Source of the DNA: Candidatus Zhuqueibacterota bacterium
GTDB lineage: Bacteria; Zhuqueibacterota; Zhuqueibacteria; Residuimicrobiales; JAFGEC01
Length of the DNA: 64,000 nucleotides
NCBI GenBank assembly: GCA_016931775.1
Contig: JAFGEC010000512.1
Location: 460-64,459, forward strand
Reading direction: 5' to 3'
The stretch's first letter is position 1, and every line of letters starts with the position of its first letter. Positions 4,177 through 60,597 of the stretch are shown here, piece by piece. The notes beneath the pieces are model-generated. The model did no database searches. It saw only the letters and a list, made by a program, of their open reading frames with translations, and was not told the DNA's origin. The position numbers and the translations under genes are program-made.

Positions 4177-4590
4177 ATGACATTCCATACAGAATATTTA
4201 TGGTTCGATACACATCAACACAGAGAATTTATCAACATAACAGACAAGATAATCGGCATTGTCGAGCAGAGTGGCATCAAAGAGGGTATGGTGCTTGTCT
4301 CGGCTATGCATATAACCGCAGCCGTTTATGTAAATGATGCAGAATACGGCTTGTTGCAGGATATTGAGGAATGGCTGCAGAAAATGGCACCGGAGGGTCC
4401 TGATTATTTTCACCACAGAACCGGAGAGGTTAATGGTGATGCCCACCTTAAAAGTTTGCTGATGCATCATCAGATTATTTTACCGGTTACAAATGGCAGA
4501 CTCGATTTGGGACCGTGGCAGCAGGTATATTACGCCGAGTTTGACGGGCAAAGACGTAAAAGAGTTATCGTCAAGGTGATGGGGGAATAG
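4177..4590 (+). CDS. YjbQ/UPF0047 family protein (secondary thiamine-phosphate synthase-like)
   Basis: Full-length similarity to the YjbQ pattern (…[16 protein letters not shown]…HLKSLLMHH…LGPWQ…). RBS GGAAGG upstream. Confidence 0.8.
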
Positions 4591-4595
4591 TAAAT

Positions 4596-5942
4596 TTAAT
4601 CCTGGTCATCGATACCGTATTGGCTCATCTTTCGATATAATGTCGCTTCACCAATTCCAAGTGCTTTTGCGGTTTGACCGCGATGGTACTTGTTTTTTTC
4701 CAGTTGATTCATGATAAAACACCGCTCAAAATCTTCAACAGCTGATTTTAAATTGGATATTTTTTTAATGGGTTGTTGGGGCACATCGTCACCGGTAAGA
4801 ATTTTCAGGCAAGTCCCATCTGAGAAAATCATGACCCTTTCAATATAATTTTCCAGTTCTCTTACCTCACCCTTCCACTCCCTTTGTTTCAGCAAATCCA
4901 TCAGCTCAGGATCGATGCGCGTAATTTTTTTATTCATCTGACGGTTGTATTTTTCGACAAAATGCCGTACCAGCAGGGGAATGTCCTCCCGCCGCTCCCG
5001 CAATGAGGGCAGGTGGATTTCAATCACATTCAACCGGTAATATAAATCCTCGCGGAACTTTTTCATCTGCACCATTTTCATCAATGATGTATTGGTTGCC
5101 GCCAAAATACGCACGTCTACTTTAATCGTGGTGGTGTCTCCCACAGGCAATATTTCCTTGCTTTCTATCGCGCGCAATAGTTTTGACTGGGCAGTAAACG
5201 GCATTTCACTGATTTCATCTAAAAACAGTGTGCCTCGCTGGGCGACTTTAAAAAGCCCCTCCTTATCCATTACGGCACCGGTAAAAGAACCCCGTTTGTG
5301 TCCGAATAACTCACTCTCAAACAGAGTTTCCGTAATGGCACCGCAATTAACGGCCATAAAGCGGCCCTTGCTGCGCGGACTGTTATAATGTATGGCCTTG
5401 GCGACCAGCTCCTTGCCTGTGCCGCTGTTACCGGTGATCAGTACATTGCTGTCACTGTCCGATACTTTTTTTATGGTATCAAATACATTTCGTATGGCCT
5501 TACTCTGACCGATGATGTTATTAAAATCATACTGGGCGTTGACTTCCTGGCGAAGTGCCTGATTTTCCACAACCAGCGTTTTGTGCTGCAGCAGTTTTTG
5601 TACCTTGATGACGACATCCTCAAAATTGAGGGGTTTGAGCAGATAGTCAAACGCCCCCTTGCGCAGCGCTTCGATGGCGGTTTCTACGGACGCAAATGCC
5701 GTGATAAAAATAAAGGATATACTGGATTGTATTTGACTGGCTTTTTCCAGCAATTCGAGGCCGTCTAAATTCGGCATTTCTATATCGCTTATGACAACAT
5801 CAAACTCATTACCACGAATAAATTCCAGAGCCTCCTCGCCATTCGATGCCTGGGTGCAGACATATCCTCGATTTGAAAACACGCTGGCCAGACTTTCGCG
5901 TGTAATGTCATCATCGTCGACAATGAGAATATGATGGGGCAT
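4596..5942 (-). CDS. Sigma-54-dependent response regulator (REC + AAA+ with GAFTGA-like loop + Fis-type HTH), NtrC family
   Basis: N-terminal LIVDDD, Walker A GNSGTGKE, GSFTGA loop, and a C-terminal HTH (AKALGIGEATLYRK). Confidence 0.9.
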   Translation of the reverse strand: MPHHILIVDDDDITRESLASVFSNRGYVCTQASNGEEALEFIRGNEFDVVISDIEMPNLDGLELLEKASQIQSSISFIFITAFASVETAIEALRKGAFDYLLKPLNFEDVVIKVQKLLQHKTLVVENQALRQEVNAQYDFNNIIGQSKAIRNVFDTIKKVSDSDSNVLITGNSGTGKELVAKAIHYNSPRSKGRFMAVNCGAITETLFESELFGHKRGSFTGAVMDKEGLFKVAQRGTLFLDEISEMPFTAQSKLLRAIESKEILPVGDTTTIKVDVRILAATNTSLMKMVQMKKFREDLYYRLNVIEIHLPSLRERREDIPLLVRHFVEKYNRQMNKKITRIDPELMDLLKQREWKGEVRELENYIERVMIFSDGTCLKILTGDDVPQQPIKKISNLKSAVEDFERCFIMNQLEKNKYHRGQTAKALGIGEATLYRKMSQYGIDDQD

Positions 5943-16308: not shown

Positions 16309-19300
16309 CTATTTCAAAACAACCATCTTTTTCACACATGAATAATTTTTCATGACAATTTTATACAAATATACACCGGATGCAAGTGTACTCGCATTAA
16401 AGGTATACGAATACATTCCGGCCTCATGTTCCGAATCGATAAAATTGCCGACTTGACGACCACGGATGTCGTAAACTTTTAAAATAACGTGGCACGATTC
16501 TTTCACGCCGTATTTTATCGTCGTTTTAGGATTAAATGGATTGGGAAAATTTTGATCGAGTGAAAAACTCATCGGCCTTAACGGTTCGCTATGTTTTAAT
16601 CCGGTTTCTGGGCTGATATGTACAAGAGCCGATCCCTTCAAGCGACTCAACGTATCCTCGACGGTTATCTGAAAATATCCCGTATCGCTTCCTGCGGTAA
16701 ATAATCCGTTACGTCCGATGGTCCCGCCAGTTGCTGACCATTTTGCATAAACAGCGACGTCAGCGCCCGAGGAATCAAATCCCTGGGCGGTAAACTGTAA
16801 CGCACTGTAGGGCGTCATAACCGAGGAATCGGGCGTAACCGATATTTTTACCAGTCCGGGCAGGATACAAATAAAAGCGCTGTCCCGGACATGAGTGGCC
16901 GGATTTAACGCAAAAACATAAAAATATCCGGCGATGCTTCCGGCTGTAAATAGACCGGTGCTGTTTATTTCCCCCCCCCGTCGCAGACCATATGACATCA
17001 ATGTCCAGCGGCATACCCAGTGAGTCGTATCCCGTAGCGCTGAAAGGCACAGACATCCCTGTGCGAATTCGGGCCGTGTCGGGGGAAATCGTAATTGACG
17101 CCAATGTTGAATGATACACCATGACCGTTACAGAATCGACTGCAGATTGGGATGGATTGCTCCGGGAAACCGCCTTTATTTTTATTTTTGAATGGGCGCC
17201 TGCCGTTATACCGTACGGGATCGTGCAGATAATGAACGTATCGGCTCCCACACTGTCCTGCAAAGTAACTGAAAAATGCGTGGATTGTCCAAGCCAGCCT
17301 GATGAATCGGCAGATATTTCCACATCCAATACGTCATCCGGATTCGTCCAGTTTTGAAAAGCGCAGATGACGGAATCTTGTTGACCGGCAGCGATAAAGC
17401 TGGTGTCATTTTGGGCAAAAACCGCCACACTGACAGGGATCGAACGCCAATTGCTAAACATGACGTTGCCGTTGATACCGTCTCCTGACTGCGGTCCTGC
17501 AGCATCTCCCCACCAGTTATTCCAGGCGGCTATTGGGAATGTGGTATCCAGATTATTCAATCCGAATCCGTTGTTGTCAAAAATGTTGTTAGAATACACG
17601 ATTGGATTTGAACCGTTCCGGCAGCTGATTCCGTCTCCGACATCGTGATGGATTTGGTTGTAGCAGATTTCCGCAACGGCATTTTCCAGGTGTATACCTG
17701 AGGATGGCGATTGGCCCCCCTCAATATTATTGTTGCTGATAGTGATTCTGGCAGAATAGGTAATCACCGGGCCGGTTCCGGGACTGTTTTCGACCGATAC
17801 GTTTCTGTTGTTGCCTATTACTGTGTTGTTAAATACGTTTATTTTTTTACACATCACCATATCTAGACCTTGATATTGATTGTATAACAACTTGTTTGCA
17901 TAAATTTCACCTTCGGAACATGAAACCAATGATATCCCGGCTCCGAAATTATTTACAATCCGGTTATCGTGTAGTTTAAAGCCGCCCAGTTTTACACCGT
18001 CGATACCCGATCCTCCGTTATTAAGAATTTTATTTTCAGATATATTCATTTCGGCGGCTTCTTTTACGGAAATACCCTCTAATTCATTACTCGTGATTTC
18101 ATTTGAAGTGACGACGGCTTTGCTTGATTTTGTAAAAAAACAAATTCCCTCCCATTTATTGGAATTTATTTTGTTTTTGCGTATAGAGGTTTGGTTTGAG
18201 TTCTCAAGAACAACAACGCCGTAAGCATTGTTATCATATATTTCATTGTTTTCGACGGTATTTTCATGTGAATTTTCTTTGATCGACAAACCGGAACTTT
18301 GATTTGTGTGAATTCTGTTGCTGCGTATATTGTTTTTCTGGCTGGACTCGATCAATACGAGTCCGACGTCCTTGTTATTGGCTAAATCATTATCGTAAAT
18401 AATATTGTCACTGGATTGTTGTAAAAACATTCCAAAAAGATCATTCCCGGAAATGAGGTTTTCATTCACACCGGTCTTCCGGCATTCAAAGAGTGCAATA
18501 CCCTGGCCTATATTATGTGCCACATTCGGATTGCCCTGTTTATTGGTGGTGCAGGAAGTGATTTGATTCTTTTCGATTGTTGAACGCTGGCTTTTCGCCA
18601 GAATGATACCGGGACCCTGATTGCCGGAAATTTGGTTATCGCTGATGATATGTTCGTCACCGGTATCGATAAAAATTGCCCCTCCCGTGCTGCCGGAAAT
18701 TTCATTCGACCTGATTGTGTGTTTTTGCGGATTCGAGCCTAAAAGTTCTGCAATTAAAATTCCGATTCCGGCGTTGTTGATAATCTTATTGCCCTGGATT
18801 TCGTTTTCAACGGCAAGACTTTCAATTCGTATTCCGCCGATCTGGTCAATGGACACTTTTAAAAATCCATTTTCACGAATGTCGTTATCACGAATCTTGT
18901 TTCTTGAACCCGCCGAAATAAGGATGGCGTGGGTGGCATTTCCTGTTATGCTATTTTCGTATATTTCGTTATCATCCTGGTTTAGAATGATGCCGTCAAC
19001 GTTTTGGGTGATTTCGTTTTTATAAAGTTTGTTTTTGTCTGCATTGTCCAGCCAAATACCCGTATGAAAAAATTTAATTCGATTTTCCTGAAAGACATTT
19101 TCATTGGCAGCATTTAAAAGAACGCCGTCGCTGTGGTCAAGGATAAGGGCGTTATTGGGTCCGGTGATGGTGTTTTTTTCGATTTCATTTTCGTGCGAAT
19201 TTTTTATTCTGATACCTGCAGTCGCACCATCATTCTCCGGGCTTGTAGCATAAAAGTCGCTGATGATGTTTTCGATTATTTTATTTGACTTACACAAATC

Positions 19301-28745: not shown

Positions 28746-29858
28746 TTAGATGGGTAGTTGGCTACGAACGTAATCCGCCCGTATCCGATCTCGTTCTGTT
28801 GAATTCATCTGTTTTCGAAAAATCTGCTGTAAATGTGCGGGCTGTGTTGTAATAATCAAAAAATTGAACAACCGATAGTCCACCGGATCAATTAATTCCA
28901 AACTCGAACCGAGTCTTAAATCTGATAACAACTGTAATAATTCTGTCGACTGTATCAACTTGGCTGCTTTAACGATTGCCCGTGCTCGAACAACGCGGTC
29001 CTCTATTTGAGCGCGGTGCTCAACACTTGCATTTTCCCTTTCCTCCCTTTCCTTTTCCACCAGATTCTGGGCCACCAAGTGCATCCGTTTTATGATGTTT
29101 TTCTCGACACGACCTAAGGTCAATTGATTGGATACCTGATAGATATCACCTTGAACTCGAGATCCTTCACCATAAAATCCACGAATAGCAACTTCACTCG
29201 GTCCCATTTCTTCAAATATCTGCTTTATTTTTCCTGCGATTGTCAATGCCGGGAGATGGACAAAAACCGATGCACGTAGCCCTGTGCCCACATTAGTGGG
29301 ACATGCCGTTAAATAGCCGAATTGTTCTGAAAATGAATAATCCAAAATTCCACTCAGTTTATTATCAATTGTCCGGATAACCTCCCAGGCGTTATTTAAA
29401 TTTAACGACGGTGCCATTGATTGTATACGAATGTGATCTTCCTCATTGATCATGAGGCTCACTTTTTCTCCCGGGGCAATAACCACACCGCGGGGAATTG
29501 TATCGGCTGCAAAACCAGGACTGATGAGCCGTCGTTCTAATAAAAAATTTTTTTCACTTTTCGTACAAGTGTTCAAGTTTAGTGACACATAGCCATAAAA
29601 CTCCGACACCTGCCCAACTGCGTCTAATACTGTTTTTAATATACTTACAAAGCTTTTTGGCGTTGCCTGCGATCGATATTTAAATCCTTTCAAATTTCGT
29701 GCCAATCTTATTCGACTGGAAATAATAATGTCATTTTCTTTGCCTTCACCTTCCAGCCAGGGAATGGACTGGCGGCACATAGCGTCCAGAAGGGAGGAGG
29801 TATCGTTGTAATCTCCCAGCCAGCAGGACATTTTTTTTTCAGTTGATAATTGCGTCAT
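28746..29858 (-). CDS. mcsB: Protein-arginine kinase McsB (ATP:guanido phosphotransferase family)
   Basis: ...SSRIRLARNLKGFKYR... and a phosphagen-kinase-like catalytic core, immediately upstream of clpC. Confidence 0.85.
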   Translation of the reverse strand: MTQLSTEKKMSCWLGDYNDTSSLLDAMCRQSIPWLEGEGKENDIIISSRIRLARNLKGFKYRSQATPKSFVSILKTVLDAVGQVSEFYGYVSLNLNTCTKSEKNFLLERRLISPGFAADTIPRGVVIAPGEKVSLMINEEDHIRIQSMAPSLNLNNAWEVIRTIDNKLSGILDYSFSEQFGYLTACPTNVGTGLRASVFVHLPALTIAGKIKQIFEEMGPSEVAIRGFYGEGSRVQGDIYQVSNQLTLGRVEKNIIKRMHLVAQNLVEKEREERENASVEHRAQIEDRVVRARAIVKAAKLIQSTELLQLLSDLRLGSSLELIDPVDYRLFNFLIITTQPAHLQQIFRKQMNSTERDRIRADYVRSQLPI

Positions 29859-32508: not shown

Positions 32509-33741
32509 CTATTCCGTCCGTATTGCATTGATGGGATCCATCTGCGCTGCTTTGGAGGCCGGGTAAACACTGGCCACCAGTGTGATAACCATGGACACCG
32601 CCGAGATGAGGAGAACGTCGCTCCATCGTACCATAATCGGAAGCCAGCCGATAATATAAACATCGGCCGGCAGTGATAAAAAGTGGTATTCCCCTTGTAC
32701 CCAGCAAAGGATATATCCCACCAGCAATCCCGTTGCCGTTCCAATAAAACCGACAAACATACCGTCGTATACGAAAATTCGCCGGATGCTTTTTGATGTT
32801 GCGCCCAGTGATTTTAAAATTCCGATATCCCGCGTTTTTTCCATAGAGACCATGATCAGGGTGCTGACGATATTAAAAGCCGCCACCATAATAATCAAGC
32901 TAAGGATGATAAAGCCTGCCCATTTCTGAATTTTATACCATGCGAACAAATTGGCATTCAAATCCGCCCATGTCAGAGCCCGATAGGGATACCCTAGACT
33001 GTCCGTAATTTGGGCGGCAAAGGTTTCCGACCTGTCGATATCATCGAGCTTAATCTCGATGCCGGTAATTTTTTCATGCATATTGAATAACAACTGAGCG
33101 GCTTCGAGAGATATAAAGGACGTTGCGTCATCAAACTCGAACAATCCGGTACTGAATATTGCGGTTACTCGGAAGCGCATTTTCTGCGGCATTTGGCCGA
33201 AGCGGGTAATACCGGCCAAGCTGGCCTGTATGACTTCATCTCCCACCTTAATCTCCAGGCGGCGCGCCAGTTCATCTCCCACCATAATACCGTAAATGAT
33301 ATATGGATCATTTTGCTGACGGTCGAGTGCAAGATCGCCGTCCGTGATGAGATCCTCCACAGGCAAAAGGTGCCGTCCCGCATCCTGATCGATTCCTTTA
33401 ATTTGTATGGCCGTGGAACTAAAATCCGAGATGATGAGTCCCTTGCCTAGAATATAAGGGCTGACTGCATCGACATGCGGTTTGGATTTGAGCATTTCGA
33501 GTTTGTCTTTATATTGATCAAAACCGCGTTCATGAAAAGTACCCATTTTTACATGACCGTAAATGCCAATGAGTCGGGAGCGGACTTCATCTTCATAGCC
33601 GTTCATGACGGATAAAATAATTAACAGCGCTGCCACTCCAATCACCACTCCAGCGATGGCAATAAAAGTGATCAACGAAAGCAGGCCGGATTTTTTTTTC
33701 GATCCGACGTACCGTTTGGCGATAAACAGTTCAAAGGTCAT
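32509..33741 (-). CDS. lolC: LolC/LolE-family lipoprotein-release permease (FtsX fold), second copy
   Basis: Same architecture as the previous gene. The start is set at the internal MTFELFIAKRY, which is the conserved N-terminus, avoiding overlap with lysS. Confidence 0.75.
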   Translation of the reverse strand: MTFELFIAKRYVGSKKKSGLLSLITFIAIAGVVIGVAALLIILSVMNGYEDEVRSRLIGIYGHVKMGTFHERGFDQYKDKLEMLKSKPHVDAVSPYILGKGLIISDFSSTAIQIKGIDQDAGRHLLPVEDLITDGDLALDRQQNDPYIIYGIMVGDELARRLEIKVGDEVIQASLAGITRFGQMPQKMRFRVTAIFSTGLFEFDDATSFISLEAAQLLFNMHEKITGIEIKLDDIDRSETFAAQITDSLGYPYRALTWADLNANLFAWYKIQKWAGFIILSLIIMVAAFNIVSTLIMVSMEKTRDIGILKSLGATSKSIRRIFVYDGMFVGFIGTATGLLVGYILCWVQGEYHFLSLPADVYIIGWLPIMVRWSDVLLISAVSMVITLVASVYPASKAAQMDPINAIRTE

Positions 33742-46559: not shown

Positions 46560-46756
46560 CTTTGGTCTCCTAAATTGGTTTTGATGAATAACTGATCGCC
46601 TGGGTTTCAGCAAGGAACGGGCCAGAAAAAGGGTTTTCGTAAGTAATATTAAGTTTTTTATTGACTTATATTGTTTTTTTGGGGATGGTAAGAAAAAAAA
46701 GTGTACCGGCATGTGCGGAATGGTGAACGGTTTGTACCGGAGGGTACAAGTTCAAA

Positions 46757-46790
46757 GAACAATGATCAATGAACAATGATCATACTTTTT
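46757..46790. repeat. Tandem copies of the 13-mer TGAACAATGATCA (contains an ATGATCAT palindrome); also present at 60595-60625
   Basis: gaacaatgatcaatgaacaatgatcatac seen directly. A third copy, tgaacaatgatcagcgaatagtgatca, lies downstream of the alkD-like gene. Confidence 0.5.
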
Positions 46791-51523: not shown

Positions 51524-51979
51524 TTACAACCGAAACCGAAATCCGCCGCCGATGACAAAATCATCATAATCACCCATGATGAGTTTGGCTTGCAGGTATG
51601 GAATCGAGCCGCGGTTTTTAAACCCGATTCCGAACAGCAGGTTGAGCCCGGTATCGCTATCACCTTTATCGGCGCCGTCTGCTTTCAAGCGTGTCATGGC
51701 AAGTCCGCCGCCGACCCAGCCGTAGGATTTTCTGCTGCTGTAAATGTAGTACAAAACATCAAAATTAATGGTCATATAGGAAACATCTTCTACAAATACG
51801 TATTCCAGATTGGGATTGAAATCGAGACGGGGTGCCAATTTGAATACCAGATCTCCGCCAATAAAAAACTCATCCACATCCGTATACAATCCTGCGCGGA
51901 TACCGGCAAGCGGTGCGGCCGTGGCGGCAGGTGAGAGAAGAGCGACTGTAAAGAACAGTAAAAGTAATCTTTTCGCCAT
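51524..51979 (-). CDS. Small outer-membrane beta-barrel protein (151 aa)
   Basis: Signal peptide MAKRLLLLFFTVALLSPAATAA, alternating amphipathic beta-strands and a C-terminal aromatic tail (GFRFRL). Confidence 0.55.
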   Translation of the reverse strand: MAKRLLLLFFTVALLSPAATAAPLAGIRAGLYTDVDEFFIGGDLVFKLAPRLDFNPNLEYVFVEDVSYMTINFDVLYYIYSSRKSYGWVGGGLAMTRLKADGADKGDSDTGLNLLFGIGFKNRGSIPYLQAKLIMGDYDDFVIGGGFRFRL

Positions 51980-52278
51980 TGGTAAATCCTCCTTTATGAT
52001 TGTTAACTGAAAAATATACACATGTGATTCTGAAGGGGAGGTGACAGATGTCACGAAACCGGGAACAAAAATATATCATTTGGTGGTTTTCCCTGCTTGC
52101 CGAAATCAAAGTAGTTGTTGAATTGTTCTGATTTTTCCTGAAAATATGATGCTGTTTCGAACAGGATCATTATGAAGCAGTATTTTAAGTGCGGAATCAA
52201 GATGCTTTGTTCAGCTGAAAAAGGGCTGGATTGTTAATTTTTTTATGATAAATTTTAAGTACTTTAAGCAAGATATCT

Positions 52279-52668
52279 GTGTTGTATTTAAAATCCGGCA
52301 TAACCATGGCATCCTTTTTTGAACAGGTGTGGTATCTGGTAGCAAAAATTCCCTGCGGAAAGGTGGCGACTTACGGTCAGATTGCCTATTTGTTGGGGAA
52401 TCCGAGAGCGGCGAGAACGGTAGGCTGGGCGCTTCATGGTATACCCGACGATTTGGATATTCCGTGGCATCGTGTCATCAACTCCAAGGGTAGAATCAGT
52501 ATGGATTGCGGCGAGCACGATCCGGATTTGCAGCGTTTATTGCTGGAAGGAGAAGGGGTGGAATTTGTGAACGACCGGATTGATTTGGTGCGCTACCAGT
52601 GGCGGCCGGTTGATGAGAATTTAAATTTATCTCCATTAGATGAGAAAGAACCTCAAGATGCCGTTTGA
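52279..52668 (+). CDS. Alkyltransferase-like (ATL) protein: the MGMT/Ogt DNA-binding domain with Trp replacing the active-site Cys
   Basis: ...KIPCGKVATYGQIA...NPRAARTVGWAL...IPWHRVIN.... This is PWHRV rather than PCHRV. The start could be the ATG at 52306. Confidence 0.75.
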   Translation: MLYLKSGITMASFFEQVWYLVAKIPCGKVATYGQIAYLLGNPRAARTVGWALHGIPDDLDIPWHRVINSKGRISMDCGEHDPDLQRLLLEGEGVEFVNDRIDLVRYQWRPVDENLNLSPLDEKEPQDAV

Positions 52669-53306
52669 CGTGATGGGCACAGGTGTGCGATGGGGCATTT
52701 CCCGCACAACGGCTGGCGTGCTTTGCAAATGGTTCGCCCCAGTTTTAAAAAGTTCATGTGCAGGGAAAAGGATTTTCCGTCGGGAACGAGGGGCTGCATC
52801 AAAAAATGCGTTTTTTCCGCACTGGCGTTTTCCGGCACCAGATTCAGTTTGCGGCAAATCCGGTGCACGTGTGTGTCCACCGGAAAAATATCCACACCAC
52901 AGGTAAACATCAGCACCACGGCGATGGTTTTAATGCCGATGCCCTTAAGCTGGGTAAAGGTTTCGATGGCATGGTCCGGTTGCATCTCACATAAAAAATC
53001 CAGATTCAATTCGCCGGTCCGTTCGACAATCCAGTGCAAAAATTTTTGGATGCGTTCGCTTTTTTGGTTAGCCAATCCTGCAGGACGAATGGTATCGGCA
53101 ATGTCCGAAGTGGGTTCATCGAGTAACAGGGACCAATCCGGGTAACGTTCTTTCAGGCGGTGATAGGCCATGTCCCTGTTTTTATCATTGGTATTTTGCG
53201 ACAGGATCGTTTTTATCATGCTGGACAGGGGATTGCCCCGGCCATTCCATTGCGGGACGCCGAAAAAGTCTTCCAGGCAAGCTGTGATTTCTGCGACATT
53301 GTCCAT
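52653..53306 (-). CDS. nth: Endonuclease III (HhH-GPD DNA glycosylase with a [4Fe-4S] cluster)
   Basis: HhH-GPD region ...LKGIGIKTIAVVLMF... and a C-terminal CKARQPLCGKCPIAHLC cluster loop. Confidence 0.85.
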   Translation of the reverse strand: MDNVAEITACLEDFFGVPQWNGRGNPLSSMIKTILSQNTNDKNRDMAYHRLKERYPDWSLLLDEPTSDIADTIRPAGLANQKSERIQKFLHWIVERTGELNLDFLCEMQPDHAIETFTQLKGIGIKTIAVVLMFTCGVDIFPVDTHVHRICRKLNLVPENASAEKTHFLMQPLVPDGKSFSLHMNFLKLGRTICKARQPLCGKCPIAHLCPSRQTAS

Positions 53307-53606
53307 TCACGGTGCCGGGTGTTTTAATTTTTTCATTGCACCTGCAAATTCGGTATCGCAGATACCGACAACAGTCAATTGATCGCGGCCGCATATACGC
53401 CCCAGTTGATTTTTATCTGCGACGCGAATAACCGGGGGAACGGGGTGCAGTATTTTTTTGAGTTCATTTTCCAGCTTTGGCGATGCATCAGTTGCGATGA
53501 CCAGCAGTCGGATATTTTTTTTATGCAATACGGCTGTTCGTCCCAGTGCGGTTTTACCGGCTTTGTTGGCAAAGCCGACGAGTGTTAAAATTTTATGATC
53601 GTCCAT
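53307..53606 (-). CDS. L7Ae-family RNA-binding protein (YlxQ-like)
   Basis: ...LVGFANKAGKTALG...LLVIATDAS... matches the YlxQ/L7Ae pattern. It is adjacent to the ylxR-like gene. Confidence 0.7.
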   Translation of the reverse strand: MDDHKILTLVGFANKAGKTALGRTAVLHKKNIRLLVIATDASPKLENELKKILHPVPPVIRVADKNQLGRICGRDQLTVVGICDTEFAGAMKKLKHPAP

Positions 53607-53856
53607 TTATTTGTCCGAGCAGATTGAGTGCATCGACCTGTATTTTTTTTCGGAACGCACGTGAAAATTTGTGTTTTTTTATGGCTGTTTCCAGGCATTG
53701 GATTTGGGGACATATATAACATCCTCTTCCCGGCAGGTTTTGTGCGCGATCAACCTTGATTTTGTTTTCCGGGGTACACACCAGGCGTAAAAGTTCCTTT
53801 TTAGGTCGTTTTTGCAAACATCCGATACAGGTTCGAGCAGGTATGTGTTGGGCCAT
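53593..53856 (-). CDS. YlxR-family (DUF448) RNA-binding protein
   Basis: RTCIGC...PGRGCYIC motif characteristic of YlxR/RnpM. Confidence 0.7.
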   Translation of the reverse strand: MAQHIPARTCIGCLQKRPKKELLRLVCTPENKIKVDRAQNLPGRGCYICPQIQCLETAIKKHKFSRAFRKKIQVDALNLLGQINGRS

Positions 53857-54082
53857 AATTTTATTAGCATGTCACATGTTTGAGACAATTTTTGAAAAAT
53901 AGGGATTAAGTGTGTCATTTACAAGAAAAATTCATTTTATGCTTTTTTGGTTTAAAATTAATTTAAACAATTATTTATCGCTTGAATAGCCAAATGCCGA
54001 TTGAAAAAATTTTTTTATAAAAATGAAAAAAAATGTTGCGTTATATGGACAAATTGTTTATATTTGCCCAGGTGAAGAAACA

Positions 54083-54118
54083 AAATGTGCGAAAATTCCA
54101 CAAAAATGTGCGAATTTT
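54083..54118 (+). promoter_or_regulatory. Direct repeat AAAATGTGCGAA(A)ATT x2, spaced 20 nt apart, upstream of the kinase-kinase-regulator operon. Candidate regulator-binding site.
   Basis: caaaatgtgcgaaaattccacaaaaatgtgcgaattttca seen directly. Confidence 0.4.
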
Positions 54119-54296
54119 CATTTTTAAATTGAAAATCCCTCCAAATTGACAATTCTGATGTGCTGAATTTTTCTGCACCAGGGCGGTGTGAGGTTGTGTG
54201 AGGGAAAAGGTGAGAAAAAGATGGTCATTTCTCCCGGAAAAAAATATCGAACGAAAAAACAGTCAGGCAAAAACCGAGTTTTTGAGGGGTGTGAAG

Positions 54297-55424
54297 ATGG
54301 CTCAAACGTATAAAGTAAAGACGATGCAGGACAAGGAAATGCAGCATCAAATTAACGAGTTGAGGGCACTGCACAGTTTTGACATGGACATTTTAAATGC
54401 AATCCCTAACTGGACTATTGTGGTGGACGGTTCTTTTAATATTTTACGGCAAAATGCACCATTTCCCGGTTACCTGTCCGAGGTCATCGGATCGAATTTG
54501 TTCCGTGTCTTTCCGATTTTTGACAAACCCGAAGTACGGCGCTGTGTTAAAAATTGTTTAACCAAATTTTCGGAATCGGGTTACCATCTGAGTATCGAAT
54601 CCGGCCAAAGTGAATGGCGTCAATTGTACATTAATAAAATTCGTTCTCAGTCCGGAATCGATGCTGTGTTGCTTATGGCGCAAAAGGAACATCAACCGCA
54701 AACGGATATTTCGGTTTTGCGTTCTGAAAGTATCCGCTATTTGAACAAGTTCGTCAGTTGGGTTGTTCATGACATTAAAAATCCGCTATCAGCTATGCTG
54801 ACGTTGTTGGATTTTCTACGCCGCGAAGATGTGCACAATGAAGATGGCGTACACAAATTCCAGAGTCATGTTGACCTTATCCAAAGCCAGGCGGATCGGA
54901 TTGTGACCATTCTTGAAAACATCCGTCCGTTACAGGGATATACCTCAAAAACCATGCAACCTATACAATTGCGAACCATCATCGAACGGGCATTAGCAGT
55001 TGCAAATTTTCGCAAGGTAGGGCCGCGGGATCTTCAGGTTAACGAATCCATCGATTTGCATGTCCCGGATATTTACTGTTGTGAAGCCAGTCTGCAGGTT
55101 GCCATTTGCGAGATTTATCTCAATGCGCTTGAAGCCGTTAATGATGGCGGTCGTATTGATGTTAAACTGGATTATCAAAATGATGAGTATAAAGTGACTA
55201 TTCAGGACGATGGCACCGGTATTCCGGCACAGAACATGGATAAAATATTTGAACTTTTTTATTCGACTCGGAGTGAGAAAAACAAAGGCGGTCTGGGTTT
55301 GACGTTGGCGAACTCCATTGTCCTTTACCATGGCGGACGGCTATTCGTGGAAAGTGAGGAGGGGCACGGTACGACGGTGACGATTAAACTGCCCCGCAAA
55401 CCCCATAGCCACAAATTGAATTAA
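54297..55424 (+). CDS. PAS-domain sensor histidine kinase
   Basis: H-box VVHDIKNPLSAM and N/G boxes NALEAV, DDGTGI, GGLGLTL. The start is at the ATG with a GAGGGG RBS. Confidence 0.8.
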   Translation: MAQTYKVKTMQDKEMQHQINELRALHSFDMDILNAIPNWTIVVDGSFNILRQNAPFPGYLSEVIGSNLFRVFPIFDKPEVRRCVKNCLTKFSESGYHLSIESGQSEWRQLYINKIRSQSGIDAVLLMAQKEHQPQTDISVLRSESIRYLNKFVSWVVHDIKNPLSAMLTLLDFLRREDVHNEDGVHKFQSHVDLIQSQADRIVTILENIRPLQGYTSKTMQPIQLRTIIERALAVANFRKVGPRDLQVNESIDLHVPDIYCCEASLQVAICEIYLNALEAVNDGGRIDVKLDYQNDEYKVTIQDDGTGIPAQNMDKIFELFYSTRSEKNKGGLGLTLANSIVLYHGGRLFVESEEGHGTTVTIKLPRKPHSHKLN

Positions 55425-55459
55425 TTGTCCTTTGGTTCTGTGAAAAACTAAGGGTATTT

Positions 55460-56518
55460 ATGAAAGATACAAAAAGAATTGCCGATGAAAAACGGCTGAC
55501 GATTACTCTGGATCGCACTTTGAAAATCGTTGCCGCAGAAGGAGAGCTCGATGTGAAAACTGTTGCCACAGAAACGCTCATCGGGCACAATCCCGCCACG
55601 GCACTGGAAAGCTACTGGAATGATCACATCGAGGAACATTGTCATTCAAGCTTGTCGGCGGGTAAGACATTCGTCCGTGAGTTTGAATATCTGGATCAGG
55701 CATCCATTACCAAATTTATTTCTATTACGATCGAACCGCAGGCGGCGGACGGATTTATTTCCGGAGTGTATGTACATTTTGAGGATATAACGGAAAAAAA
55801 ACGCAACAACCTGAAAATGAATCAGCAACGCCGGATGCAAAATCTCGCTCTGCTCGCCTCCAATATTTCCGATAAAATTAACAATCCCCTTGCGCGTGTT
55901 TTAAATCAAGTCGGCACGCTGCTCATGGAAGATTTAAAGACCATGGAAACGAAACATTTGCTGCACGAACTGGAAAATATTCAGGAGCTCGTGTATTCCA
56001 TGTCATCGGTGACTATTGCATTGCAGGCTTTCAGTACAGTTTGTTCGGATAATTTCCAGCAAATTGATATCAATAGTATCGTGGAAAAATCCGTGGAATT
56101 AAGCCGGCTGCTCAAGGTCAATGAACATATTGATTATCGTGTTCACTTTGAAGCGGATATCCCGGCTATCCGTGGTAATGAAATCACGCTGGAGCAATGC
56201 TTTGTCAATATTATTAAAAATGCGTTGGAAGCCATGCCCATGGGCGGAAGGCTCGAGGTTCGAACCACACTGGAAAACGATTTTGTCCTGATTATTTTCA
56301 AAGATAACGGGATGGGTATCGAGCGGAAAAATTTACATAAAATTTTCGATCCTTTTTTTAAAACCAAAAACGGCCAGCATTCCGGACTGGGCATGTCGGT
56401 GGGTTACGGCATCATTTCCAGTCACGACGGTTGGATTGATATTCAAAGCAGGCCTGACAGGGGCACTCAAGTAACCGTATTTCTTCCAGTTAAAAAAACA
56501 TTCAATATAGATAATTGA
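55460..56518 (+). CDS. Histidine-kinase-like protein whose phospho-accepting His is replaced by Asp (H-box SNISDKINNPL) while the ATPase domain is intact
   Basis: PAS-like N-terminus and DHp-like helix with D at the conserved His position. Intact N box (NALEAM), G1 (DNGMGI) and G2 (GLGMSVGYG). Confidence 0.75.
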   Translation: MKDTKRIADEKRLTITLDRTLKIVAAEGELDVKTVATETLIGHNPATALESYWNDHIEEHCHSSLSAGKTFVREFEYLDQASITKFISITIEPQAADGFISGVYVHFEDITEKKRNNLKMNQQRRMQNLALLASNISDKINNPLARVLNQVGTLLMEDLKTMETKHLLHELENIQELVYSMSSVTIALQAFSTVCSDNFQQIDINSIVEKSVELSRLLKVNEHIDYRVHFEADIPAIRGNEITLEQCFVNIIKNALEAMPMGGRLEVRTTLENDFVLIIFKDNGMGIERKNLHKIFDPFFKTKNGQHSGLGMSVGYGIISSHDGWIDIQSRPDRGTQVTVFLPVKKTFNIDN

Positions 56519-56529
56519 AAGGTGAAAAA

Positions 56530-57960
56530 ATGACTCAAGTCAACTCACGAACCGGTGACAACAAAATTCTTGTTGTCGATGATGACCGCACAGTCCTCAA
56601 TTCAATTGTCAAGCTGTTAAAAAGCTCCAATTACCGCTGCATTACCGCCCTTACCAGTGATGAAGGTGTAAAACTGATCAAAGCGGAAAAACCACTGGTG
56701 GTATTAACCGATTTAAAGATGGAAACGGAGACATCAGGGATTGACATTCTTGAGGAGGCCAAAAAGACGGATCCTGATTCGGTCGTCCTTTTATACACAG
56801 CTTTCGGTAATGTGCCGATTGCCGTGGAAGCCTTTAAAAAAGGCGCTTTTGATTTTATCCAAAAGGTGGCGACACACCACGATATTTTACATCCCGTGGA
56901 ACGGGCATTCAAATATGCACGCATGCAAAAGGAAAACGCCATACTGCGCAGCAGACTGGATTTAACAGACGACGGCACATTTTACGGCGCCATTGGTACC
57001 AGTCCGGTGAGCCGGGACCTGTTCGACAAAGCAAAGCGCGTTGCCATGACCAACGCCACAGTGATGATCACCGGCGATACAGGAACGGGCAAAGAAGTGA
57101 TCGCCAAGGGCATTCATTATCACAGCCCCCGCTGCGAAGAACCCTTTGTTCCTGTCGCCGTGGGAGCGTTGCCGGATACTTTGCTGGAAAGCGAATTATT
57201 CGGTTACATGAGGGGCTCTTTTACCGGTGCCAATAGTGACAAAGCCGGCTTGTTTGAGACCGCAAACAGAGGGACCATCTTTTTAGATGAAATCGGTGAG
57301 GTGAGTGCCGACATGCAGCATAAATTGCTGCGGGTTCTGCAGGAGCGTCAGGTACGGCGTGTCGGTGGACATAAACACATCAATTTGGATCTGCGGGTTT
57401 TGAGTGCCACCAATAAAGATCCGGAACAGCTGGTTAAAGAGGGCAAGCTGCGTGAAGATTTGTATTACCGGCTCAACGTGATCCGTATTCATATTCCCTT
57501 GTTAAAGGAGCGCAGAGAGGATGTTCCGGTGCTGGCCTATCACTTTTTGAAAAAATACCGTAACACCGGTATCATCAAAGTGGAAAAGATCAACAGTGAA
57601 GCATTGTTGTATATGCAGCAGTATGACTGGCCCGGGAATGTGCGGGAACTTCAGGGTGTCATCGAGTCTCTGGCTGCTCTGGCTACCAGTCCTGAAATAA
57701 AGGCGGAAAATCTGCCGGAAAAATTGCGACCCACCACCAAACGGGTATTTTTCCCATCCACCGAAAATCTTGATTTTAAATCCGCCAAAGCGAAAATTAT
57801 TGAAGATTTTGAAAAACAGTATATTGAAGGATTGCTGGAAAAATATGAAGGCAATATCTCAAAAGTGGCGGATGAAGCGGGATTGAATCGAAAGACCATT
57901 TACCGTTTGATCGAAGCACGAAAAATAAATTTCAAGCGGACGCGACCGGATAAAGGCTGA
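56530..57960 (+). CDS. Sigma-54-dependent response regulator (REC + AAA+ GAFTGA + HTH), NtrC family
   Basis: ILVVDDD, GDTGTGKE, GSFTGA, ESELFG and a C-terminal HTH. The start is the ATG at 56530 after AAAGGTGA. Confidence 0.9.
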   Translation: MTQVNSRTGDNKILVVDDDRTVLNSIVKLLKSSNYRCITALTSDEGVKLIKAEKPLVVLTDLKMETETSGIDILEEAKKTDPDSVVLLYTAFGNVPIAVEAFKKGAFDFIQKVATHHDILHPVERAFKYARMQKENAILRSRLDLTDDGTFYGAIGTSPVSRDLFDKAKRVAMTNATVMITGDTGTGKEVIAKGIHYHSPRCEEPFVPVAVGALPDTLLESELFGYMRGSFTGANSDKAGLFETANRGTIFLDEIGEVSADMQHKLLRVLQERQVRRVGGHKHINLDLRVLSATNKDPEQLVKEGKLREDLYYRLNVIRIHIPLLKERREDVPVLAYHFLKKYRNTGIIKVEKINSEALLYMQQYDWPGNVRELQGVIESLAALATSPEIKAENLPEKLRPTTKRVFFPSTENLDFKSAKAKIIEDFEKQYIEGLLEKYEGNISKVADEAGLNRKTIYRLIEARKINFKRTRPDKG

Positions 57961-58056
57961 GAGACATATGGGAAATTCAGGGGGCTGCCGGTTTGAAAAT
58001 ACGGTATCAGATCATTTTCGGGTGTTTCCTGACAGGTCACACTCATATTAAAAAAA

Positions 58057-58072
58057 GTGGCCTTCAGGCCAC
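58057..58072 (+). terminator. Weak hairpin (GTGGCC-ttca-GGCCAC) downstream of the regulator gene
   Basis: A perfect 6-bp stem, but the T-run begins 10 nt later. Confidence 0.3.
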
Positions 58073-58176
58073 AATATATTGTTTTTACTATCTTTGACTA
58101 CTAAAAAATTTTTTTTTAAACGAGTTAAATACAATATAAACAGGAGAATTAAATATTCGATCTCTTTTGTGAGTTC

Positions 58177-58192
58177 TGGCACAGATTTTGTA
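58177..58192 (+). promoter_or_regulatory. Candidate sigma-54 promoter (TGGCAC-N5-TTTGT) about 75 nt upstream of the orphan receiver gene
   Basis: TGGCACagattTTGTA: the -24 element is perfect and the -12 element has T instead of the conserved C. Confidence 0.3.
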
Positions 58193-58264
58193 AATATGAT
58201 ACAAAAATAAGGAATGCAGCTAAAATTTAATTAACTGTTGATAATATGAAGGGATCGATTAGGA

Positions 58265-58717
58265 ATGAGGATAGGAAAGAATCAATCGGAAGAGAAAGAG
58301 AGAATTGTCATCGGTTCAATCGACTACGACGTGATCCGTGCTCTGGGGCGGCGATTCAACAGCGATGAATACGAACTTGTGTTCGTACAGAAGGGTGTCA
58401 ACATTCTGCATGAAATTTTGGAAAAAGAGGTGGACATGCTCATTCTGGATCTGGAAATTTCCGGAACCATGAACGTGGAAATTTTACCGGTGATCAGAAG
58501 ACTGCGGCCCAAATTGCCTATCGTTCTTATTACGGATGATTTTACACACCAGATACGTCAAGTCGCCGCGCAGCTAGGCGTCACATATCAGGCATTTAAA
58601 CCGATGTCGGATAATGAGACCGATGCCATCGTATCAGCGACATCGCAAATTATTCAAAAATCGAAAATTCTCAATCCAGAATGTTTCAGTGAAGCGGAAA
58701 ATTCGCCCGGATGCTGA
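58265..58717 (+). CDS. Stand-alone receiver (CheY-like) domain protein
   Basis: Alternating beta-alpha pattern with an acidic pocket (DYD...MLILDLE) and the conserved ...VLITDD...; 150 aa. Confidence 0.6.
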   Translation: MRIGKNQSEEKERIVIGSIDYDVIRALGRRFNSDEYELVFVQKGVNILHEILEKEVDMLILDLEISGTMNVEILPVIRRLRPKLPIVLITDDFTHQIRQVAAQLGVTYQAFKPMSDNETDAIVSATSQIIQKSKILNPECFSEAENSPGC

Positions 58718-58757
58718 GCGACTATGCTTTCGAATCGATTGAATTGACCGTTGTTTG

Positions 58758-58792
58758 AACCACCGGAATTACTAATACCGGTGGTTTTTTAT
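58758..58792 (+). terminator. Rho-independent terminator
   Basis: AACCACCGG-aattactaata-CCGGTGGTT followed by TTTTTT. Confidence 0.65.
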
Positions 58793-58933
58793 TTAATATA
58801 TTCGCTATTTTTGAGCCTTTGGTTTTTTCTTGACTTGTAAAACTTTTATATTTATTATTCCACAAGTAAACGACCGGCCGTATGGAAAAAAAAGTGGGAG
58901 AATCCAACAGACTTTTTCAATCAGGAGGGTAAA

Positions 58934-59428
58934 ATGAAAAGATATCTGCCATTGTTTTGTTCTTTTTTTCTTGTTTTTACTGTGTGCGTAACTCGGGACT
59001 CTGTCGATACTGAAAAAGTAACACAGGAGGTAAAACTGGTGATAGATCGGTTCTACCAACTTTACACCACAAAAGATTTGGATTTGCTTTCAAAGATTGT
59101 GGCTCACGATGAGGATATGGTGAATTTGGGGACGGATTCGGTTGAATATTGGGTTGGGTGGGAGTCGCTCAATACAGCGTTTCAGAAGCAGTGGGAATCA
59201 TTTGAAAAGCCTGAGATCACCTACAGAAACCAATCCATCAAGATATCTCAATCAAGGACGGTTTCCTGGTATTCAATGTTATTGGATTTCACAGTGGTGT
59301 TTGAGGGAAAAACGGTGCGCTGGACCGGAGCGAGGACGACGGGTATATTGGAAAAGAGAGAGGGTGAATGGAAAATCGTGCAGTTTCATAATTCAATGCC
59401 GGTTCTGATTCCTGCGGCTGATTATTAA
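58934..59428 (+). CDS. Secreted NTF2-like/SnoaL-like (DUF4440-type) protein
   Basis: Signal peptide; cone-shaped alpha+beta fold signature (...DRFYQLYTTKDLDLLSKIVAHDED...WKIVQFHNS). Confidence 0.6.
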   Translation: MKRYLPLFCSFFLVFTVCVTRDSVDTEKVTQEVKLVIDRFYQLYTTKDLDLLSKIVAHDEDMVNLGTDSVEYWVGWESLNTAFQKQWESFEKPEITYRNQSIKISQSRTVSWYSMLLDFTVVFEGKTVRWTGARTTGILEKREGEWKIVQFHNSMPVLIPAADY

Positions 59429-59508
59429 TGGTTTTTTCCAAAACCCGGCGCGGGCGTTTACTTTATTGTACCGGATTGTTTAATTGAAAACGATCATAAC
59501 ACGGAGAG

Positions 59509-60597
59509 ATGATGGCCGAACGTCTTGTCAATATGTTTTTCACCGGGCAATCCATGGAAAAATTTGCCGGCATAATCAGTGCGAATTATCCTGCTTTTGC
59601 CCGGGACCGGTTTTTATCACTTGTCTATACGGATAATTGGGACAAAAAAGAGTTAAAAGAAAAAATGCGGCATACAACGCTCTGTCTCAGGCAGGTTTTA
59701 CCGGACTCTTTCCCAGAAGCGGTCGAAGTATTGATCGCCGCCGCACCGTTGGTGAAAGGATTCGAAGCCATGGTTCTGCCGGACTATGTGGAATTGTACG
59801 GTTTGGACCACTGGGAAAAATCCATGCAGGCACTGGAAGTGTTTACCCAATATTCGTCATCCGAGTTTGCCATCCGGCCGTTTATAATCCAGGATCCGGC
59901 CGGAGCCATGACTTATATGAACAAATTTGCGGAAAGCGCAAATCCAAAAGTCCGGCGTTTCTCCAGCGAAGGCTGCCGGCCCAGGCTGCCCTGGGCCATG
60001 GCAATTCCCGCTTTTAAAAAAGATCCGTCGCTCATACTGCCGCTGCTGGAAAAATTAAAAGACGACGTCTCTGAATCTGTCCGTAGAAGTGTGGCCAACA
60101 ATCTGAACGATATATCCAAGGATCACCCCGATATTGTACTGGATCTATGCGAATCCTGGGCCGGTGATTCGGCGCGTACAGGCGAAATAATTAAAAGGGC
60201 GTGCCGTGGACTGCTGAAGGCCGGTGATAAGCGGGCTCTGGTGCTTTTCGGCTTTTCGAATCCCGGTTTGCTTCAAGTAGAGTCGATTGGTGCGGACAGG
60301 AGTGTTGTGACAATCGGGGACGAAATTTTTTATTCTTTTGATTTGATCGTGCATGATCAAACCTGCAAGGTGCGGCTGGAGTACAGCGTGTTTTTCGTAA
60401 AGTCCGGGGGCAAAACATCGAAAAAAATCTTTCAGATCATTGAAAAAGAATTCGAACCGGGCCGCTATCGGATCAAAAGAAAGCATTCGTTTGCCGATCA
60501 ATCCACACGTAAACATTATCCCGGCGTGCACCGGTTTGAGTTTATTGCCAACGGTGAGGTGAAGGGGGAATTTTTGATCGGTGTCAATGAACGGTGA
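59509..60597 (+). CDS. HEAT-like-repeat DNA alkylation repair glycosylase (AlkC/AlkD family) with a C-terminal Ig-like extension
   Basis: ...EFAIRPFI...VRRFSSEGCRPRLPW...VRRSVANNLNDISKDHP... matches PF08713-type DNA alkylation repair enzymes. The extra roughly 120 aa are beta-rich. Confidence 0.7.
   Translation: MMAERLVNMFFTGQSMEKFAGIISANYPAFARDRFLSLVYTDNWDKKELKEKMRHTTLCLRQVLPDSFPEAVEVLIAAAPLVKGFEAMVLPDYVELYGLDHWEKSMQALEVFTQYSSSEFAIRPFIIQDPAGAMTYMNKFAESANPKVRRFSSEGCRPRLPWAMAIPAFKKDPSLILPLLEKLKDDVSESVRRSVANNLNDISKDHPDIVLDLCESWAGDSARTGEIIKRACRGLLKAGDKRALVLFGFSNPGLLQVESIGADRSVVTIGDEIFYSFDLIVHDQTCKVRLEYSVFFVKSGGKTSKKIFQIIEKEFEPGRYRIKRKHSFADQSTRKHYPGVHRFEFIANGEVKGEFLIGVNER

Follow-up and report, generated by a model that had tools for sequence, protein, structure and literature searches.

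A predicted histidine-less kinase paralogue beside an intact kinase and a sigma-54 activator in candidate division KSB1

We analyzed a 64,000-nucleotide stretch of DNA from Candidatus Zhuqueibacterota bacterium (contig JAFGEC010000512.1; hereafter the window) and focused on a set of four genes, all on the plus strand, that encode two kinase-like proteins (HK1 and HK2), an NtrC-type sigma-54 activator and a single-domain receiver. The second kinase-like protein, HK2, carries an aspartate at the position of the phospho-acceptor histidine and a lysine in place of the acidic residue that should follow it, and it retains the asparagine four residues further on together with a complete ATP-binding domain. 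This pattern of residues was observed directly, and its distribution among orthologues supports a family-wide loss of the kinase determinants with the phosphatase and docking determinants kept. We regard HK2 as a natural histidine-less kinase paralogue, and the role that we consider most likely, although we propose it tentatively, is that of a kinase-dead, regulator-docking protein acting as a phosphatase or negative modulator that is dedicated to this task and has a sensor of its own.

The phospho-site and the family of HK2

HK2 (55460-56518, plus strand) comprises a PAS domain, a degenerate DHp domain and an intact ATP-binding domain. In Pfam searches, HATPase_c scored 75 bits and PAS_4 matched weakly, and HisKA reached only 15.9 bits against its cut-off of 26.9. 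The H-box reads NISD138K139INNPL, with the Asp138 codon GAT at 55871-55873. In phmmer comparisons with PDB chains, LASNISDKINNPL of HK2 aligned to LAASISHEIRNPL of KinB, LAGGVAHDFNNLL of CckA and LAAGVAHEIRNPL of ZraS, and Asp138, anchored by the invariant NNPL, occupies the position of the phospho-acceptor His exactly, as a sequence-only reading of this DNA had proposed. No alignment placed a His elsewhere in the DHp helix. Nor did we find another conserved His in the HK2 DHp helices, as H165 and H168 are missing from the 76%-identical orthologue of the nearest relative (locus L001; L003, L004 and L085-L089 are likewise labels of relatives' loci).

Judged against the features of functional HisKA kinases, HK2 lacks both the phospho-His and the acidic residue at His+1, which is replaced by Lys139, and retains the ATP boxes and the DHp-CA fold. 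The feature of HisKA phosphatases, an Asn or Thr at His+4, is present as Asn142, which all 31 aligned orthologues share. The N, G1 and G2 boxes, described as intact from the sequence alone, proved to be so, as did the F box, and all of them are invariant in the family (N254, D282/G284/G286, P298/F299 and G309/L310/G311). An AlphaFold2 model with a mean predicted local distance difference test score (pLDDT) of 74.8 comprises the PAS domain at residues 12-109, helices at 111-137/141-156 and 164-192, and the CA domain at 200-344; the long first helix is kinked at 138-140, and pLDDT is lower in the monomeric DHp domain. Foldseek searches with the model retrieved the PAS-kinases WalK, YF1 and VicK, followed by KinB, ZraS, HK853 and DivL. 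The nearest NCBIfam model was AtoS, with 177 bits, far under the equivalog cut-off of 646. Within the ATP lid, the family has an invariant His307 (window approximately 56378-56380) in the pattern KTKxxxH-xGLG and a lid one residue shorter, the lid of the canonical relatives being GxGTGLG; lid residues 303-310 have low pLDDT in the model.

The HK2 proteins form a sharply bounded family of approximately 350 amino acids, scoring 209-780 bits before the scores fall to 135 bits, and an identical protein is on record from a metagenome-assembled genome of candidate division KSB1. HisKA was matched by 30 of the 31 members searched, and we consider the DHp domain to be HisKA-derived. Among 34 orthologues, position 0 of the H-box was His in 21, Asp in 12 and Asn in 1, and never Tyr, and position +1 was Lys, Arg or Gln, rather than an acidic residue, in 33. 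When 1.84 billion cluster representatives were searched with a profile, more distant members of approximately 340-360 amino acids came to light, in which position 0 is Asp, Asn, Lys, Glu or Arg. A scan of genome contigs with the family alignment, in which the common patterns FDPFFTTK and GNEITLEQ drew in generic NtrB-type kinases, yielded no family member. The docking helix alpha1 shows a set of invariant residues (N141, N142, P143, A145, L148, N149, G152 and L155).

In a neighbour-joining tree, the Asp-bearing sequences form two deep, adjacent groups with 37-45% identity to the window protein, and the Asp has thus been retained for long. According to the sequence-only reading, an Asp found as a singleton among His-bearing homologues would have suggested an error or a recent mutation. 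We rejected both, as the Asp is fixed in deep clades and common to independent assemblies. HK2 is also better conserved than HK1 in the same genomes (42, 37, 40, 35 and 40% versus 30, 33, 31, 29 and 26% identity). The fact that Asp is fixed across clades of 37-45% identity and that HK2 is more conserved than HK1 indicates that HK2 is functional and not decaying.

Gene order and cis-elements of the module

HK1 (54297-55424, plus strand) is a predicted soluble protein with a PAS-like region, HisKA (38 bits) and HATPase_c (83 bits), and it has the normal H-box noted earlier, VVH158D159IKNPL, in which H158, D159 and N162 are invariant among 7 HK1 orthologues. Its nearest NCBIfam model, AtoS, scored 149 bits against the cut-off of 646. 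Orthologues of HK1 range from 366 to 651 amino acids, and both kinase-like proteins are soluble and of PAS-DHp-CA type, with 31% identity across DHp-CA. At the positions +7, +8, +11, +12 and +15, which we take from work on HK853 to be those contacting the receiver, HK1 has S, A, T, L and F, and HK2 has A, R, N, Q and T; as these presumed contact positions differ completely, the comparison suggests that the two are not simple duplicates of each other. The HK1 open reading frame opens with GTG at 54198, and its likely start is the ATG at 54297 after the ribosome-binding site GAGGGG. An N-terminal extension from the GTG was rejected: the L001 DNA corresponding to 54230-54280 diverges with indels, and the ribosome-binding site and ATG are kept.

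The intergenic distances of 35 nucleotides (HK1 to HK2) and 11 nucleotides (HK2 to activator), reported earlier for three co-oriented genes, were reproduced, and we add the receiver gene as the fourth of the set. The activator (56530-57960, plus strand, from ATG; an alternative start at TTG 56515 would overlap HK2) consists of a receiver, an AAA+ domain and HTH_8, with Pfam matches to Response_reg (70 bits), Sigma54_activat (226 bits), AAA_lid_14 and HTH_8 (35 bits). Its receiver residues D17, D18, D61, T90 and K112 are invariant, the receiver being 62-95% identical across 8 loci, and the AAA+ domain has the Walker A motif GDTGTGKE, the GSFTGA loop and the Walker B motif FLDEIGE. The best NCBIfam matches, AtoC with 396 bits and NtrC with 384 bits, fall below the equivalog cut-offs of 714 and 559, and we assign the protein to the NtrC-type enhancer-binding family and not to the orthologues of NtrC or AtoC. 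The single-domain receiver gene (58265-58717, plus strand; Response_reg 42.6 bits) was aligned across 8 orthologues with 40-83% identity, in which D62 and K112 are invariant; there is only one N-terminal acidic residue.

Across relatives, all 10 contexts had HK2 directly before the activator gene, HK1, always with His-Asp, was directly upstream of HK2 in 9 of 10, and the receiver gene followed the activator in all 8 contexts long enough to show it. In several loci, the HK1 stop overlaps with the start of HK2 or adjoins it. The one context without an adjacent HK1 is L088, where position 0 is Lys, followed by Glu (IAKELNNPL). In that locus, no long open reading frame was found in the approximately 600 nucleotides (4356-4989) between a promoter-like element, described below, and the HK2-like gene, and HK1 could have been deleted or decayed. 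This gene order indicates that the four genes make up a conserved signalling module, which occurs chiefly in candidate division KSB1.

The space between the activator and receiver genes contains a perfect palindrome, GTGGCCttcaGGCCAC (58057-58072), present as a single exact copy in the window, and, on the plus strand, a sigma-54-type promoter, TGGCACagattTTGTA (58177-58192), that ends 72 nucleotides before the receiver ATG. The promoter has one mismatch to the sigma-54 consensus: TGGCAC and the spacing agree, and the -12 element is TTGT (GT) instead of TTGC (GC). The palindrome is kept as GTGGCY-N4-RGYCAC in 8 loci, without compensatory changes. All 9 loci of the family have the promoter, in the form TGGCAY-N5-TTG(T/A)W. 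The pair was present in 8 of 9 loci with readable DNA, the palindrome being 119-123 bp upstream of the promoter, or 107 bp in L086. In several loci, both elements lie downstream of a separate, clear terminator of the activator gene. A terminator function for the 58057-58072 hairpin was rejected on account of these separate upstream terminators, a T-run on the wrong strand and the missing compensatory changes.

A window-wide search for the sigma-54 consensus gave 28 matches, in comparison with 30.1 expected by chance, and showed no excess; the site at 58177 was singled out only because of its conservation across loci. Other matches with one mismatch were at 16490-16505 (plus strand), 29689-29704 and 46609-46624 (both minus strand). 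The palindrome is a candidate upstream activating sequence for the activator, and the layout corresponds to the classic NtrC-type arrangement of enhancer and promoter, which makes the receiver gene a predicted sigma-54-dependent target that would close a feedback loop. In the public contigs, the receiver gene starts called in L085 (7789) and L086 (7551) are probably too far upstream, as the palindrome or the sigma-54-type promoter falls inside or at the annotated N-terminal extensions.

Proposed role of HK2 and its alternatives

The reading of the residue pattern builds on published mutants. Willett and Kirby (2012) examined four HisKA kinases, namely HK853 and three from Myxococcus including CrdS, and found the acidic residue at His+1 to be needed only for kinase activity and the Asn or Thr at His+4 only for phosphatase activity (PMC3510030). 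CrdS, which partners an NtrC-like regulator, became kinase-dead and stayed phosphatase-proficient with the substitutions E372A/D/Q/G, and its phosphatase activity hardly depends on the His itself (PMC3510030). Having lost the His+1 acid and kept the Asn at +4, HK2 carries by this logic a kinase-minus, phosphatase-plus signature, and since that pattern is fixed and the docking helix invariant, we favour a dedicated phosphatase or modulator. The phosphatase or scaffold function proposed from the sequence alone thus fits the residue pattern, whereas the aspartyl phosphate relay offered beside it does not, as will be seen below.

In the mechanism that we propose, HK1 would be the working histidine kinase of the module, and HK2 would still fold as a PAS-DHp-CA protein, bind nucleotide and dock a receiver domain. 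We infer that it dephosphorylates the activator, the single-domain receiver or both, so that HK1 phosphorylation and HK2 dephosphorylation would answer to two different PAS sensors. The phosphorylated activator would bind the palindrome at 58057-58072 and activate the promoter at 58177-58192, and this promoter would drive the receiver gene and close the predicted feedback loop.

Several points weigh against a dedicated phosphatase. HK1 also retains Asn at +4 and could be bifunctional, so a separate phosphatase would not be strictly needed, and phosphatase activity alone does not explain the strict conservation of the ATP boxes; nucleotide is known to stimulate phosphatase activity in EnvZ and NtrB. 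A basic +1 residue is not universally inactivating, since HisKA_2/HWE kinases work when the His is followed by Arg, and five HK2 members give faint HisKA_2 matches (best E 0.025), though nearly all match HisKA. The -12 element of the sigma-54-type promoter is TTGT (58188-58191) or, in L085, TTGA, and canonical TTGC appears in no locus; the constant non-GC form is unusual and may reflect a lineage-specific sigma-54 preference. The need for the His in the phosphatase reaction differs among kinases, PleC H610A losing both activities (PMC3510030), and DivL, the best-studied pseudo-histidine kinase, has all kinase boxes yet neither kinase nor phosphatase activity (PMC4211667).

The change from His to Asp might also be adaptive and not merely tolerated, an idea that we regard as speculative and rather unlikely. 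Together with the invariant Asn at +4, the Asp would give a D-x-x-x-N pair on one helix face that, by analogy, mimics the dyads of phospho-aspartate phosphatases, and a HisKA scaffold would have become a dedicated, ATP-binding and PAS-regulated phosphatase. Asp...Gln/Asn catalytic dyads are found in dedicated phospho-aspartate phosphatases, as in CheZ and the NarX-type DxxxQ motif. If this were true, control of one sigma-54 activator would be divided in the KSB1 lineage, kinase control falling to one protein and phosphatase control to another, each with its own sensing.

The main rival to a phosphatase or modulator is reversed signalling of the DivL kind, in which a catalytically inactive HK2 would sense the phosphorylated single-domain receiver via its DHp-CA region and modulate HK1 allosterically, as DivL-bound DivK~P controls CckA; we consider this possible, if on the doubtful side. 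The cast is that of the Caulobacter circuit, in which a true kinase and a paralogue lacking the histidine are joined by a single-domain receiver and an output regulator that binds DNA. The receiver gene would feed back as it lies under a sigma-54-type promoter, the HK2 docking helix is invariant, and the overlapping or abutting HK1 and HK2 genes suggest co-translation of partners. DivL of Caulobacter crescentus, with Tyr550 at the phospho-site, resembles HK2 in having the PAS-DHp-CA architecture and all kinase boxes but no phospho-acceptor His, and in being conserved across its orthologues (PMC4211667). One DivL orthologue has Ala at the site, which tolerates change as it does in the HK2 family (PMC4211667). 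Like HK2, DivL acts beside a true kinase, a single-domain receiver and a transcription-factor regulator. Nevertheless, HK2 is not a DivL orthologue: the PDB search matched DivL over the CA domain only, with 46 bits in comparison with 99 bits for KinB. DivL binds ATP analogues weakly, whereas the ATP-binding residues of HK2 are strictly invariant, and L088 has an HK2-like gene, an activator and a receiver without an adjacent HK1. The site itself is Tyr in DivL and Asp, Asn, Lys, Glu or His in the HK2 family, where 21 of the 34 orthologues keep the His. Unlike HK2, DivL keeps the acidic +1 residue; it is membrane-anchored and has several PAS domains, and its output is CtrA via CckA-ChpT and not a sigma-54 activator.

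The invariant ATP site beside a dispensable acceptor residue would be accounted for if HK1 and HK2 formed an obligate heterodimer via their DHp helices, with the ATP-binding domain of HK2 phosphorylating in trans the His158 of HK1. In favour are the close linkage of the genes, which sometimes overlap, and the soluble PAS-DHp-CA nature of both proteins. Against it, their DHp-CA regions are only 31% identical, the invariance of Asn +4 and of the docking helix would be left unexplained, L088 again lacks the adjacent HK1, and kinase heterodimers are, to our knowledge, rare; we hold this to be distinctly improbable. An intact ATP site and an Asp strictly retained within its clades are also what one would expect if Asp138 were itself phosphorylated by the ATP-binding domain and its acyl-phosphate passed to the regulator, and acyl-phosphates on Asp are chemically competent donors. 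Such an Asp-to-Asp relay is nonetheless very unlikely, bordering on negligible, because orthologues in the same module have Asn, Lys or Arg, as well as Glu or His, at position 0 and 33 of 34 lack the general base at +1. With a side chain shorter than that of His, Asp would, moreover, hold its carboxylate further from the ATP gamma-phosphate, and we know of no precedent for a relay of this type.

Returning to the phosphatase or modulator reading, among its closest parallels are the engineered variants CrdS E372A and H371A and HK853 E261A, which follow the same residue logic as HK2, with kinase activity lost and phosphatase activity resting on the Asn or Thr at +4 (PMC3510030). Those are laboratory mutants of bifunctional kinases, whereas HK2 represents a natural, anciently fixed family beside an intact kinase. 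NtrB-NtrC, AtoS-AtoC and ZraS-ZraR share the logic of a receiver-AAA+-HTH activator acting at a sigma-54 promoter from an upstream palindrome. The proteins of the window are not orthologues of AtoS, AtoC or NtrC, all scores being far under the equivalog cut-offs, and their module differs from these systems in that the kinases are soluble and in tandem and that an extra single-domain receiver is both component and target. The four-component system RedCDEF of Myxococcus is reportedly an operon for two proteins of the kinase type together with two receivers, one of these probably acting as a phosphatase or phosphate sink; RedE is said to keep its His, and the output is reportedly not a sigma-54 activator within the operon. 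RedCDEF is not known to be homologous to the module of the window.

A search of the literature for kinases without the histidine yielded DivL, a ChrS variant, PsmA and RocA, and nothing on the HK2 family or on a fixed Asp. The family and its module are undescribed and conceptually a variant of the known histidine-less kinase paralogues, a group known from a few studied cases with DivL foremost. HK2 provides a natural series in which one protein in one module has His, Asp, Asn, Lys or Glu at the phospho-site, with the kinase-specific residue lost and the phosphatase-specific one kept, and thus offers a test of whether nature can split the kinase and phosphatase functions of HisKA proteins between two genes. 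It could also reveal the role of the ATP-binding domain once phosphorylation is gone. The module as a whole makes a compact, testable circuit from an uncultured phylum, consisting of two sensors, a sigma-54 activator, a likely enhancer and promoter, and a feedback receiver.

The region upstream of HK1 and the flanking genes

A promoter-like or operator element conserved across loci, TGTTGC-N7-GGACA-N7-TATATT following an A-tract, lies upstream of HK1 at 54034-54064 (plus strand). Of 9 loci of the family, 8 have it ahead of the first kinase gene; 80 unrelated loci (823 kb) gave no match, and it was the sole site in the window even with 3 mismatches allowed. In the relatives it is at L001 4587, L003 4744, L004 4628, L085 2751, L086 3426, L087 3462 and L088 4356. 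Its form across loci is A-tract-TGTTGC-N7-GG(G)ACA-N7-TATATT, and as TGTTGC and GGGACA make an imperfect inverted repeat, a transcription factor may bind here, at a site that overlaps a promoter of the -33/-7 type. A scan for the sigma-70 consensus gave 9 sites in comparison with 11.2 in shuffled sequences, with no excess, and is uninformative for this organism.

Just 3' of this element, at 54082-54119 (plus strand), are the direct repeats AAAATGTGCGAAAATTC and AAAATGTGCGAATTTTC. They share AAAATGTGCGAA, which starts at 54082 and again at 54103, and the copies extend to 17 nucleotides at 88% identity. The repeat noted in the sequence-only reading is therefore real, although its first copy starts at 54082 and not at 54083 and the offset is 21 and not 20 nucleotides. 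The window contained 3 close 12-mer repeats, in comparison with 0.28 expected in Markov-2 simulations, and simulations of the 31%-GC intergenic region alone gave the repeat a chance probability of approximately 0.026, making it modestly non-random. The other close exact direct repeats of at least 12 nucleotides in the window were TTCATCTCCCAC at 33235 and 33271 (36-nucleotide offset) and GAACAATGATCA at 46757 and 46771 (14-nucleotide offset).

The earlier proposal that the repeat is a regulator site found no support in the form given. A tandem site at which a dimeric regulator, the activator or another factor, controls the operon would be consistent with the exact 12-mers and their longer similarity, an offset of two helical turns and the low local chance probability, with a position immediately 3' of the conserved promoter-like element, where an operator is expected, and with the high conservation of the surrounding noncoding DNA in L001. 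The repeat was, however, missing from all more distant orthologous loci (L003, L004 and L085-L087), and no further copies were present in the window. In L001, copy 1 reads ATATACG, the only two changes in an otherwise conserved stretch (TGTGCG to TATACG) hitting its core. The repeat is also unlike the conserved palindrome near the sigma-54-type promoter, and we found nothing linking it to the activator. We therefore consider a tandem regulator site unlikely; the repeat may be an operator peculiar to this lineage, or 21 bp may simply have been duplicated, and the palindrome is a much better candidate for the site of the activator.

The leader at 54160-54225 is almost identical in L001, CTGAATTTTTCTGCACCAGGGCGGTGTGAGGTTGTGTGAGGGAAAAGGTGAGAAAAAGATGG, and contains GTGTGAGG in tandem and an NtrC-site-like TGCACC-N5-GGTGTG. 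It has no Rfam match, and an Rfam scan of 53500-59000 found no known RNA element in the leader, the one match being to psRNA2 and below threshold (19 versus 65 bits).

We compared the synteny of the flanks at 51524-53856 and 58934-60597 of the window with L003, L004, L086, L087 and L089. The upstream flank is syntenic across relatives and includes an MGMT-like DNA_binding_1 gene, endonuclease III, an L7Ae-like gene and YlxR. After the receiver gene, the more distant relatives have an fn3 protein, a FlgD_ig/Por_Secre_tail protein of the type IX secretion system (T9SS) type and Wza/Wzz polysaccharide-export genes, and the window and L001 instead have a SnoaL_3 protein and a DNA-alkylation-repair-like protein.

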